IMG/VR virus record: IMGVR_UViG_2690316231_000013
Strand: one strand, 5' to 3'
Length of the DNA: 11,659 nucleotides
Origin: a virus
Lineage: Duplodnaviria; Heunggongvirae; Uroviricota; Caudoviricetes
The position numbers and the translations under genes were made by a program. The notes beneath the pieces were generated by a model. That model was given only the letters and a program-made list of their open reading frames with translations, searched no databases and was not told where the DNA came from. This document shows, one piece after another, positions 8,838 through 11,659 of this stretch. Numbering within the stretch: the first letter of the stretch is position 1; each line of letters opens with the position of its first letter.

Positions 8838-9221
8838 ATGCGTGATATTCAGATGGTTCTTGAGCGTTGGGGAGCGTGGGCGGCTAATAATCATGAAGAT
8901 GTGACCTGGTCGTCCATTGCCGCCGGTTTTAAGGGATTAATTACTTCAAAAGTAAAATCTCGCCCGCAATGTTGTGACGATGACGCGATGATCATTTGCG
9001 GGTGCATGGCCCGTCTGAAAAAGAACAACAGCGATTTGCACGATTTATTAGTAGATTATTATGTAGTCGGTATGACATTCATGTCACTGGCAGGTAAGCA
9101 TTGCTGCTCTGATGGTTATATCGGGAAAAGGTTACAGAAGGCTGAGGGTATAATTGAAGGGATGTTAATGGCATTAGATATCCGGTTAGAGATGGATATC
9201 GTTGTTAATAACTCTAATTAA
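8838..9221 (+). CDS. quuD: Late-gene antiterminator Q (DLP12 QuuD-type), 127 aa
   Basis: ATG at 8838 with GGAG 7 nt upstream; the track start at 8823 is [29 protein letters not shown]...[16 protein letters not shown]... matches the QuuD-type Q family as recalled. Confidence 0.85.
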
Positions 9222-9254
9222 TATGCCAATTGTTTACTAAAAATTATTAAAAAT

Positions 9255-9272
9255 GGGGCGTTGAGACGCCCC
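9255..9272 (-). terminator. GC-rich stem-loop with a T-run on the minus strand (candidate terminator)
   Basis: GGGGCGT-tgag-ACGCCCC perfect 7-bp stem. On the minus strand it is followed by ATTTTTAATAATTTTT; on the plus strand it is followed by A-rich sequence, so it is not a plus-strand intrinsic terminator. Confidence 0.45.
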
Positions 9273-9338
9273 CAAAAATAAAGGGTAATATATAACAGAA
9301 GGTTTATATAGTTAGAAGCAAGGTTGTGCTCCTAAAGG

Positions 9339-9394
9339 AAGTGGCTTGAGGGAGCCACTTATATGTTGGGGAGGCAAAGCCTCCCGCAACATAT
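9339..9394. terminator. Two adjacent stem-loops directly 3' of the porin gene (candidate porin terminators and/or barrier to plus-strand read-through from Q)
   Basis: AAGTGGCT-tgaggg-AGCCACTT (9339-9360) and ATATGTTGGGGAGGC-aaa-GCCTCCCGCAACATAT (9361-9394, one bulge), 16 nt from the porin stop at 9410-9412. On the plus strand followed by CTTTTAG. Confidence 0.5.
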
Positions 9395-9409
9395 CTTTTA
9401 GTAATCAAA

Positions 9410-10492
9410 TTAGAACTGGTAAACCATACCTACAGCAACGATATCATCGGTAGCAACGCCAGATGCTTTCGTGAAATCGCTCTTATCAATCAGGTTGATT
9501 TTGTAATCAACAAAAGTGGACATATTTTTGTTGAAGTAATAGGTTGCACCTACATCAATATATTCAACCAGGTCCTGATCACCCCACGCACCCAAGTCTT
9601 TTCCTTTAGATTGCAGGTAAGCAACGGACGGACGCAGACCGAAGTCGAACTGATATTGTGCAACTACTTCGAAGTTTTGTGCTTTGTTGGCAATATGGTT
9701 ATTACCAAAAACAGTCATGTTCTGGGTTTCAGAATAGGTGGTAGCCAGATAGATGTTGTTCGCATCATATTTCAGACCAGCTGCCCATACTTCAGCATTT
9801 TGACCAGATGCATTCAGGCTGTTGTTACCGTAGATAACCTGATTATTAGTGCGGTCAGATTTAGCATAGGTTGCACCTACACCGAATCCTTCATACTCAT
9901 AAGTAGTGGAGAAACCGAAACCATCACCATTAGCTTCAGTTACGTCAGTGCGGTCATTTTTACCCTGATACTGAGCAGCAAAGTTCAGACCATCAACCAG
10001 ACCAAAGAAGTCATTGTTACGATAAGTTGCAACACCTGTGGTGCGACCAGTCATGAATACATCTGTTTGGGTCCAGGTATCGCCACCGAATTCTGGCAGA
10101 ACGTCGGTCCATGCACCAATATCGTATGCTACACCGTAGTTACGGCCATAATCGATGGAGCCGTAGTCACCGAATTTCAGGCCAGCGAAGGCAAGACGGG
10201 TTTTATCTTTGGAGGAACCTTGAGATTCAGCGCGGTTGCCTTTGAATTCATATTCCCACTGACCGAAACCAGTCAGTTGATCGTTGATTTGGGTTTCACC
10301 TTTGAAGCCAAGACGGGCATAAGTAGTATCACCATCATCTGCATCATTAGAGGAGAAGTAGTGCTTAGCATTAACTTTCCCGTACAGATCCAGCTTGTTA
10401 CTGTCTTTATTATAAATTTCAGCTGCCTGAGCAGACATCGCCATCAGTACTGATGCAGCTACAGCAGAAATTGCCACTGTTAATTTTTTCAT
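9410..10492 (-). CDS. nmpC: General diffusion porin of the OmpC/NmpC/OmpD family, 360 aa, apparently intact
   Basis: ORF-track ORF 9410..10552 trimmed to the ATG at 10490-10492 ([23 protein letters not shown] signal peptide, then AEIYNKD...). C-terminal ...VGMVYQF with terminal Phe. Position between Q and holin on the opposite strand matches DLP12 nmpC. Confidence 0.85.
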
Positions 10493-10770
10493 CGTGAGCC
10501 CTTTTTTTGAACTATTATTAAAAAATGATGTCACTGCGCGATAAATATTCATCTAATCAATGTGATTATTTCAAGATGTAAGTTTTGGTTTCTCATTTGA
10601 TTTGTGAAGTAGATCTCTATTTTTATCTGAACTTTTTCTATCGAATCCTATTCATGGCTCTTGGCTGAATAAAAATAAATCTATTAGCCAATTTATATTA
10701 ATGGCTGTTATTTATAAGTGCTCTATAATTTGAAGATTCAATTTAAACCAGCTAAAAATAACGCTGGAAA

Positions 10771-10791
10771 TTATTTGTTGGTTATTTGTTG
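10771..10791. repeat. Tandem direct repeat TTATTTGTTG-g-TTATTTGTTG in the AT-rich region upstream of the porin gene
   Basis: Read directly: 10771-10780 and 10782-10791 are identical 10-mers. Confidence 0.5.
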
Positions 10792-10918
10792 AGATTTGCT
10801 TATGTATTTGTAGTGGTGTTTTCAATACTCGGTAGCATTCTCGCAAATATCATTTAGTGGTTTACGTACGTAAAAAATTGGTTATGCTGTTAAGAGTGGT
10901 TACTTCGTCACACAGCTT

Positions 10919-10951
10919 AAACCCGCCGTCGAGCGGGTTTTTCCATTTTTT
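10919..10951 (+). terminator. Intrinsic terminator on the plus strand about 130 nt upstream of the holin start (candidate tR'-like late terminator)
   Basis: AAACCCGC-cgtcga-GCGGGTTT stem followed by TTCCATTTTTT. Confidence 0.6.
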
Positions 10952-11079
10952 GAGTCTCGATATTAGCTGATAACCCAATACCTGAGTTATTCACTGACTC
11001 CGAGTCTGTTAAGTTTCTGCTTTTTTGCGATACGTTGTATTCCCTCAATTTACACCCGCTTTGTCTGCGAGGTGGGGTT

Positions 11080-11295
11080 ATGAAATCCATGGATAAGTTA
11101 ACAACGGGTGTCGCCTATGGCACCTCAGCAGGTAGTGCCGGTTACTGGTTTTTACAGCTGCTCGATAAAGTCACGCCCTCACAGTGGGCAGCAATAGGTG
11201 TGCTGGGTAGCCTGGTATTTGGCCTGCTGACGTACCTGACAAACCTTTATTTCAAGATTAAAGAAGATAAGCGCAAGGCTGCGAGAGGTGAATAA
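11080..11295 (+). CDS. essD: Class II holin / pinholin (phage 21 S-type), 71 aa, with dual start motif
   Basis: ATG at 11080; the track start at 11035 is an upstream alternative. [26 protein letters not shown]...[15 protein letters not shown] has Met1 and Met4 (MKSM) as in S21-type holin/antiholin pairs, two TM segments and a charged C-terminus. Confidence 0.85.
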
Positions 11296-11550
11296 TGCCT
11301 CCATCATTACGAAAAGCCGTTGCTGCTGCTATTGGTGGCGGAGCAATTGCTATAGCATCAGTGTTAATTACTGGCCCAAGTGGTAACGATGGTCTGGAAG
11401 GTGTCAGCTACGTACCATACAAAGATATCGTTGGCGTATGGACTGTATGTCACGGACACACCGGAAAAGACATCATGCTCGGTAAAACGTATACCAAAGC
11501 AGAATGCAAAGCACTCTTGAATAAAGACCTTGCCACTGTCGCCAGACAAA
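11295..11550 (+). pseudogene. rrrD: SAR endolysin (phage 21 R-type lysozyme, rrrD-like), truncated after about 85 codons by an IS5-family element
   Basis: ATG at 11295 overlaps the holin stop (TAATG). N-terminal signal-anchor-release domain [27 protein letters not shown], then lysozyme sequence up to ...KDLATVARQ. From 11551 the sequence is an IS end and the frame reads [15 protein letters not shown] then stop. Confidence 0.8.
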
Positions 11551-11659
11551 GGAAGGTGCGAATAAGCAGGTCATTTCTTCCCAAGCTGACTCGCTGATTA
11601 AAATTTCTCGGATCTGGGCCGATTTTTTTCCCGCAAACACATCGAATCAGCCTATTTAG
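11551..11659. mobile_element. Terminal about 109 bp of an IS5-family insertion sequence (IS5-like but diverged); the element continues beyond the window
   Basis: Starts GGAAGGTGCGAATAAGC (the IS5 terminal inverted repeat as I recall it) and ends ...GAATCAGCCTATTTAG. Internal positions differ from IS5 at many sites, roughly 75-80% identical by eye. Confidence 0.65.

Follow-up and report, generated by a model that had tools for sequence, protein, structure and literature searches.

An intact lc/nmpC-type porin gene between the Q and holin genes of a defective lambdoid prophage

Why should an open gene for an outer-membrane porin lie inverted among the late genes of a prophage, and what would it do there? 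The question is raised by a stretch of phage-derived DNA of 11,659 nucleotides (hereafter, the window; IMG/VR record IMGVR_UViG_2690316231_000013), in which a sequence-only reading had picked out an intact 360-residue porin of the OmpC/NmpC type, with a signal peptide and a C-terminal Phe, on the opposite strand between Q and the holin gene. Judged by its sequence, this gene is lc/nmpC, in an allele without visible defect; lc/nmpC encodes the lysogenic-conversion porin of lambdoid phages, and its module is already known and very common. The lc/nmpC locus is long known, that of PA-2 having been sequenced in the 1980s, and is carried by many lambda-like prophages of Escherichia coli and Shigella.

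The porin gene, its late-gene neighbors, and its relatives

The open reading frames of the window were compared with protein profiles, solved structures, and the related loci of E. coli K-12 and phage PA-2. The porin and the late genes on either side of it are:
8838-9221, (+): quuD, Q antiterminator of the Q21 family (Pfam Phage_antitermQ, E=4e-53)
9410-10492, (-): porin gene, lc/nmpC allele, 360 codons plus stop, open in the six-frame ORF list
10424-10492, (-): codons of the porin signal peptide, which leave a mature protein of 337 aa
11080-11295, (+): essD, P21-type holin (annotation and Pfam)
11295-11550, (+): rrrD, SAR-endolysin, first 85 codons, interrupted by an insertion sequence (IS); 98.5% identical to K-12 rrrD

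With quuD on the (+) strand on one side and essD on the (+) strand on the other, the porin gene is antiparallel to both neighbors, as had been described. The match of quuD to the solved Q21 structure was weak (E=8e-7), and in the rrrD of the window Pfam Phage_lysozyme reached only profile positions 3 to 54 of 125.

The claim of an intact porin was upheld. Read from the MKKLTVA start at 10492, the ORF encodes 360 aa and ends in VYQF, and in a profile search Pfam Porin_1 covered residues 29 to 360 from end to end (profile positions 1–337 of 337, E=3e-153). The protein is a full-length member of the phage protein family phrog_410 and matched 48 solved porin sequences over their full length (E<=1e-108); the whole mature porin aligned with solved OmpK37, OmpC, OmpK36, PhoE, and OmpF at E=1e-137 to 1e-116, with the PEFGGD of the constriction loop (L3) and the C-terminal YQF in register. 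The longer motif LPEFGGDT is identical in OmpK37, in OmpC of S. Typhi, and in K-12 OmpC. Full-length matches to solved porins at E~1e-135 settle the predicted fold as that of a porin. Export signals are present at both ends of the protein, namely a cleavable-type N-terminal signal peptide, whose 23 residues ending in AQA are those annotated as the signal peptide in the PA-2 lc record, and a C-terminal aromatic (Phe) insertion signal. No defect in the porin coding sequence was visible. Against six other alleles, dN/dS was 0.06 to 0.11, with dS <=0.5 overall and ~1.0 in the 3' half; a ratio of ~0.1 argues that the porin has long been kept as a coding gene under purifying selection.

Two details of annotation touch on the start and continuity of the frame. 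A further ATG in the same frame, at 10552 and so 60 nt ahead of the 10492 start, would give a product of 380 aa and is used by some phage and IMG records (loci L010 and L011), probably as an annotation artifact. The 380-aa reading was rejected: it would set 20 more residues before the signal peptide, and the PA-2 record and RefSeq both use the 360-aa start. In phage PhiR68_2 (L006, 211-1354), the porin is annotated as two overlapping coding sequences with no single frame, in a module otherwise 98% identical; either a frameshift or a mistake in sequencing is suspected within the 5' part of that gene.

The same Q–porin–holin layout is found in PA-2, DLP12, phage 434, and more than 30 phage records. 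The 1.9-kb Q–porin–S module of the window occurs unchanged (100% identity) in several complete E. coli chromosomes; it had a match in 4407 of 5426 complete E. coli genomes and was covered to at least 80% in 2465 of the 5426. Matches were also found in 49 phage records (36 of them with coverage of at least 80%). Among the carriers are environmental and ECOR-derived lambdoid phages that form plaques, as well as phage 434B and the PA-2 record J02580. By module identity, the allele class of the window (>=95%) comprises ~800 records and a K-12/PA-2-like class (90–95%) ~1950. The exact porin sequence is present on at least 1000 public contigs, where databases call it “outer membrane porin protein LC” or “porin OmpD [Shigella sonnei]”, among other names. 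What the sequence-only reading had missed is that lc of PA-2 is a textbook conversion locus and that close to half of the complete E. coli genomes carry it.

The porin is 90% identical to PA-2 Lc and 61% identical to K-12 OmpC. In the NCBIfam OmpC-subfamily model it scored 518 bits against a cut-off of 484, and it fell below the equivalog cut-offs for PhoE and OmpF. PGAP/RefSeq names the locus “ompC: porin OmpC” in thousands of genomes (e.g., 14211-15293 of L003), a label that follows from its passing this OmpC subfamily model.

Regulatory flanks of the porin gene

Both flanks of the porin gene were aligned with K-12 and PA-2 and scanned for RNA structure, terminators, and promoters. The features on the two sides are:
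9240-9409, (-): structured 3' untranslated tail of the porin transcript, the ipeX region (by identity to K-12 DLP12 and PA-2)
9245-9272, (-): intrinsic terminator of the porin/IpeX transcript, GGGGCGT-CTCA-ACGCCCC followed by ATTTTTAATA
10493-11034, no strand: AT-rich intergenic region with the porin 5' UTR and promoter (proximal ~200 bp), 33.0% GC
10600-10620, no strand: predicted proximal CRP-binding site, ATTTGTGAAGTAGATCTCTAT, an exact match to the PA-2 J02580 annotation
10895-10915, no strand: predicted distal CRP-binding site, AGTGGTTACTTCGTCACACAG, an exact match to the second J02580 site
10919-10949, (+): strong intrinsic terminator, read in the direction of the late genes, 130 bp ahead of the holin start; K-12 and PA-2 have it as well

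Stem-loops had been noticed at the 3' end of the porin gene, and an AT-rich region of ~540 bp at its 5' end. Both were borne out, and both have a known counterpart that had gone unrecognized: as judged from sequence, the stem-loops are the known IpeX RNA and the AT-rich region holds the two CRP sites annotated in PA-2. On the (-) strand, 9240-9409 folds into five hairpins at -63.2 kcal/mol, as compared with -31.0 +/- 3.7 for shuffled sequences (z=-8.8), and the last hairpin (9272-9255), which a T-run follows, was predicted to be an intrinsic terminator. The tail lies directly 3' of the porin stop, the same place as IpeX of DLP12 and PA-2, and shares their terminator; in sequence, the copy in the window is identical to K-12 DLP12 and PA-2 in 187 of 192 aligned columns and differs in five. 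Relative to K-12, these differences are four substitutions and one 1-nt indel. One substitution falls in a hairpin loop, and the sole substitution in a stem (G versus A, column 83, third hairpin) replaces a G-U pair with A-U and so preserves the stem.

Rfam gave no family match on 9222-9409, either at gathering thresholds or at E<=10, most likely because none of its models fits this RNA, and the assignment to IpeX therefore rests on sequence identity to K-12 and PA-2 together with the literature. Castillo-Keller et al. are said to have mapped ipeX in 2006 between the nmpC stop codon and the terminator, with the same sequence in PA-2, and reportedly found OmpC to be lowered by lc transcription. 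ipeX is made from the porin promoter within the porin transcript and lowers OmpC (PMC12197685), and IpeX is listed among the RNAs that target ompC in two further papers (one being PMC3333887). Other weak Rfam hits (one to a Trp-leader-like terminator, 10824-10946, E=0.38, the others to snoRNAs by chance) were set aside as noise, except for the terminator hairpin itself. A second candidate for the tail RNA, svsR, a prophage sRNA that limits lytic phage infection, was also dropped: its paper names neither IpeX nor nmpC, and the receptor literature in that paper is that of LamB and maltose.

Upstream, the AT-rich region measures 542 bp (10493-11034) at 33.0% GC, with 29.7% GC in the proximal 408 bp, as compared with 45.9% for the whole window. 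The 500 bp upstream of the porin differ from K-12 at eight positions, two of them in the proximal 200 bp that correspond to K-12 PnmpC. At the level of sequence, the porin thus has its own CRP-dependent promoter region, with both CRP sites as listed above. A sigma-70 consensus scan of 10493-11034 called no promoter, as expected if the promoter is activator-dependent. By eye, AATATT at 10544-10549, 5 to 7 nt upstream of G residues, is a tentative -10 candidate; it would match the reported “G” start and would place the proximal CRP site near -72. In K-12, the segment from -199 to -1 of nmpC is an active promoter, PnmpC, which CRP activates and OmpR, IHF, and MprA repress, and 5' RACE showed that an nmpC/IS5 fusion transcript begins at G (PMC11677980).

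The distal end of the intergenic region is probably the leader of the late operon. There, the hairpin of 10919-10949 (AAACCCGC-CGTCGA-GCGGGTTT, followed by a T-run) adjoins the CRP site at 10895-10915 and is, by sequence, a candidate tR'-type terminator that would be overridden by QuuD. A Q-dependent late promoter and its terminator may therefore be situated in the interval from porin to holin and not next to Q; if so, late transcription need not cross the porin gene.

The carrier prophage and comparison with known systems

Outside the porin module, the window holds the following features:
1-322, strand not given: mlrA (yehV), the integration site, matched at the left end of the window
323-1897, strand not given: integrase and excisionase, matching mlrA prophages of O157:H7 at 99.6% (other strains have prophages of this layout at mlrA too)
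4419-5099, strand not given: exo, intact, adjoining the recT/bet remnant
5096-5407, (-): recT/bet remnant, 103 C-terminal codons (family match)
6148-6708, (+): lipoprotein-type gene, phrog_12521, signal peptide and lipobox lost
6705-7157, (+): lipoprotein-type gene, phrog_13877, 150 aa, intact (a glycine-zipper match was weak and below the cut-off)
11551-11659, no strand: end of an ISKpn26 element (IS5 family), terminal 109 nt, 100% identical to an annotated copy of the ISKpn26 family

The mlrA (yehV) gene encodes a curli regulator and also hosts prophages in O157:H7. The integrase of the window has 428 aa with Arm-DNA-bind_2 and Phage_integrase domains, and the excisionase is a DUF1233 protein. 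A tRNA scan found none in the window, so no tRNA attachment site lies inside it. The prophage sits at mlrA and not at argU, and it is therefore not DLP12, despite a late module of the DLP12/PA-2 type.

No repressor, N, O, or P gene was found between the recT/bet remnant and the nin region. Compared with an intact 186-aa copy in E. coli BR1220, the gene at 6148-6708 has in-frame stops upstream of 6250. Both lipoprotein-type genes are preceded by an AT-rich stretch at 5550-6330 (36% GC). As read from the sequence, the surrounding prophage is defective, or dead: it has no immunity or replication genes, its recT is truncated, and its endolysin is cut.

The sequence-only reading had also contrasted the K-12 nmpC, disrupted by IS5, with an open porin here and an IS5-family element in the endolysin instead. 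The MG1655 annotation agrees for K-12, where nmpC is split by IS5B. For the window, the attribution stands at the level of the family: the element that is 100% identical to 11551-11659 has a transposase annotated “IS5-like element ISKpn26 family”, whereas identity to K-12 IS5/IS5B is 77% over the 109 nt, well short of near-identity, and plain “IS5” would be the wrong name. Homology to rrrD ends at 11550, where the junction reads CAAA/GGAAGG (within 11541-11560) and K-12 rrrD continues CAAATTAACC. The YTAR target that is present at other ISKpn26 copies is absent at this junction, which may therefore mark where an IS-mediated deletion ends and not a plain insertion. The remaining lysis genes and the structural genes may be missing. 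A search for the exact rrrD/ISKpn26 junction, in one genome per species, gave no match.

Among known systems, a close likeness is that to lc of PA-2 (GenBank J02580; “protein 2”), which also lies between Q and the holin and is read leftward. Both CRP sites are identical, the 23-aa signal peptide is the same, the proteins share 90% identity and the modules 91.8%, the 3' tail is 97% identical, and the terminator is the same. In contrast, the mature protein of the window is five residues shorter, the 3' two-thirds of its gene are 11 to 39% divergent per 100 bp, and it is carried by a defective prophage, whereas PA-2 is viable. The cryptic prophage DLP12 (qsr') of K-12 has the same module and flanks (quuD, the ipeX region, the promoter region, essD, and rrrD), but its nmpC is split whereas the copy in the window is open. 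In an identical nmpC copy in phage 434, IS5 is annotated after codon 346. DLP12 lies at argU, and it is the prophage in the window whose rrrD is cut by ISKpn26.

Two further comparisons are by description. OmpD of Salmonella is described as the counterpart of NmpC (PMC3333887), and several records call the protein of the window “OmpD”; set against the porin of the window, however, Salmonella OmpD is a chromosomal major porin without Q and holin flanks. The arrangement is also reminiscent of the morons bor, lom, and stx (the last between Q and S), accessory genes with their own expression signals in or beside the late region that are expressed or useful in the lysogen, and bor sits just downstream in related prophages. 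In contrast to stx, which is co-oriented with and dependent on Q-driven late transcription, the porin of the window is antiparallel and has its own, predicted CRP-dependent promoter.

Divergent loops and the role of the module

The porin gene departs from the K-12 and PA-2 loci mainly in its 3' two-thirds. Differences from K-12 and PA-2 number 0 to 3 per 100 bp in the 3' tail, 11 to 39 across 9400-9999, and 6 to 16 across 10000-10199, and they drop to 0 to 1 per 100 bp over the 5' part of the gene and the promoter-proximal stretch, so that divergence is clustered and sharply bounded in the 3' two-thirds of the gene. At the protein level the differences form blocks at residues ~181–190, 218–236, 267–271, 306–316, and 340–352, several of which fall where the alignments to OmpK37 and OmpC have gaps. 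Read from the topology of the family, we infer that these blocks correspond to external loops L4 to L8. The pattern is consistent with a mosaic allele, in which the predicted surface-exposed part of the porin was exchanged by recombination between conserved regulatory flanks. A further suggestion, which we put forward tentatively and hold to be somewhat doubtful, is that lambdoid phages routinely exchange this part as a “loop cassette”, such that alleles like this 360-aa form could differ in which phages, colicins, or antibodies they let in or escape, although the shared tail would silence OmpC in every case. Its basis is an identity to K-12 and PA-2 of 97 to 100% in the promoter, in the IpeX tail, and in the first third of the coding sequence, with a dS of ~1 in the 3' two-thirds.

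The explanation that we favor for the locus as a whole, with a probability of about 0.85, is that of an lc/nmpC conversion porin, a self-contained “moron” that replaces a host porin, with an IpeX tail that lowers OmpC. Being read leftward against the late genes, the porin would be independent of Q and of the phage late program. In a lysogen, sigma-70 polymerase with cAMP-CRP would transcribe the porin together with its 170-nt tail, and this transcription would be higher when glucose is scarce. The protein would be exported and form what is predicted to be a trimeric, 16-stranded general diffusion pore, and the tail, as IpeX RNA, would lower synthesis of OmpC (and OmpF) post-transcriptionally. 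The net effect would be to replace OmpC, the receptor of PA-2-type phages, with a phage-encoded porin, such that related phages would be excluded and the surface and permeability of the cell changed. Both the receptor role of OmpC and the exclusion are reportedly described in the PA-2 literature of Schnaitman and co-workers. In a dead prophage such as this one, the module would survive as a host-retained gene, and exclusion would benefit only the host. That an expressed prophage porin would alter permeability and receptor display had been proposed from the sequence, and the literature agrees: expression of NmpC reportedly raises sensitivity to colicins and phages (PMC11677980), and ipeX lowers OmpC (PMC12197685).

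Three other explanations were weighed against the conversion porin. Taken at face value, the RefSeq label “porin OmpC” would imply host ompC or its duplicate, and the porin does pass the NCBIfam OmpC-subfamily cut-off; that model, however, defines a subfamily and not an equivalog, and an orthologue of OmpC, the host osmoporin, is refuted by 61% identity to K-12 OmpC (as compared with 90% to phage Lc) and by a locus in a prophage, between phage Q and holin genes rather than beside micF/rcsD. We regard a host ompC as highly improbable. Alternatively, the ORF could be intact and the gene effectively unexpressed, through AT-rich silencing or as a “quiescent porin”, its open frame reflecting recent acquisition. 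An upstream region of 30 to 33% GC is a typical target of xenogeneic silencing, the sigma-70 scan called no promoter in it, and the prophage around it is decaying; the intact nmpC of E. coli B is, moreover, said to be styled “quiescent” in the title of a 1998 report by Prilipov et al. This silent relic is nonetheless at odds with a dN/dS of ~0.1 over a dS of up to 0.5 to 1.0, which indicates long-term purifying selection, with the retention of an identical protein on at least 1000 contigs while its neighbors decay, and with a detectable transcript from the near-identical K-12 promoter (PMC11677980), and it appears unlikely.

A different possibility, to which we would assign a real but minor share of likelihood, is that the module is a domesticated host porin, kept for the benefit of the host as an alternative channel under carbon limitation, with loops unlike those of OmpC and OmpF. 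The loss of immunity, replication, and intact lysis from a prophage that keeps an undamaged porin gene with promoter and tail would fit such domestication, as would CRP control, which suits nutrient scavenging, and the concentration of variation in blocks read as surface loops. Yet the same module with the same flanks occurs in viable phages, which points to a phage-derived design, and NmpC has been argued to be useless or even harmful to the cell (PMC11677980). Domestication also differs from the conversion-porin explanation in who benefits and not in mechanism.

As a discovery the locus carries little weight, its regulation and RNA tail being, like the locus itself, already in the literature; a mildly new aspect is offered only by the loop cassette, whose divergence stops sharply at conserved flanks. 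Its practical meaning lies elsewhere. The RefSeq “ompC” at this position should be corrected to a prophage lc/nmpC allele. Where the copy is open, a strain may produce a third or fourth general porin, and an extra porin could affect antibiotic permeability, sensitivity to phages and colicins, and the level of OmpC. Porin typing for resistance or for phage therapy should allow for lc/nmpC copies.
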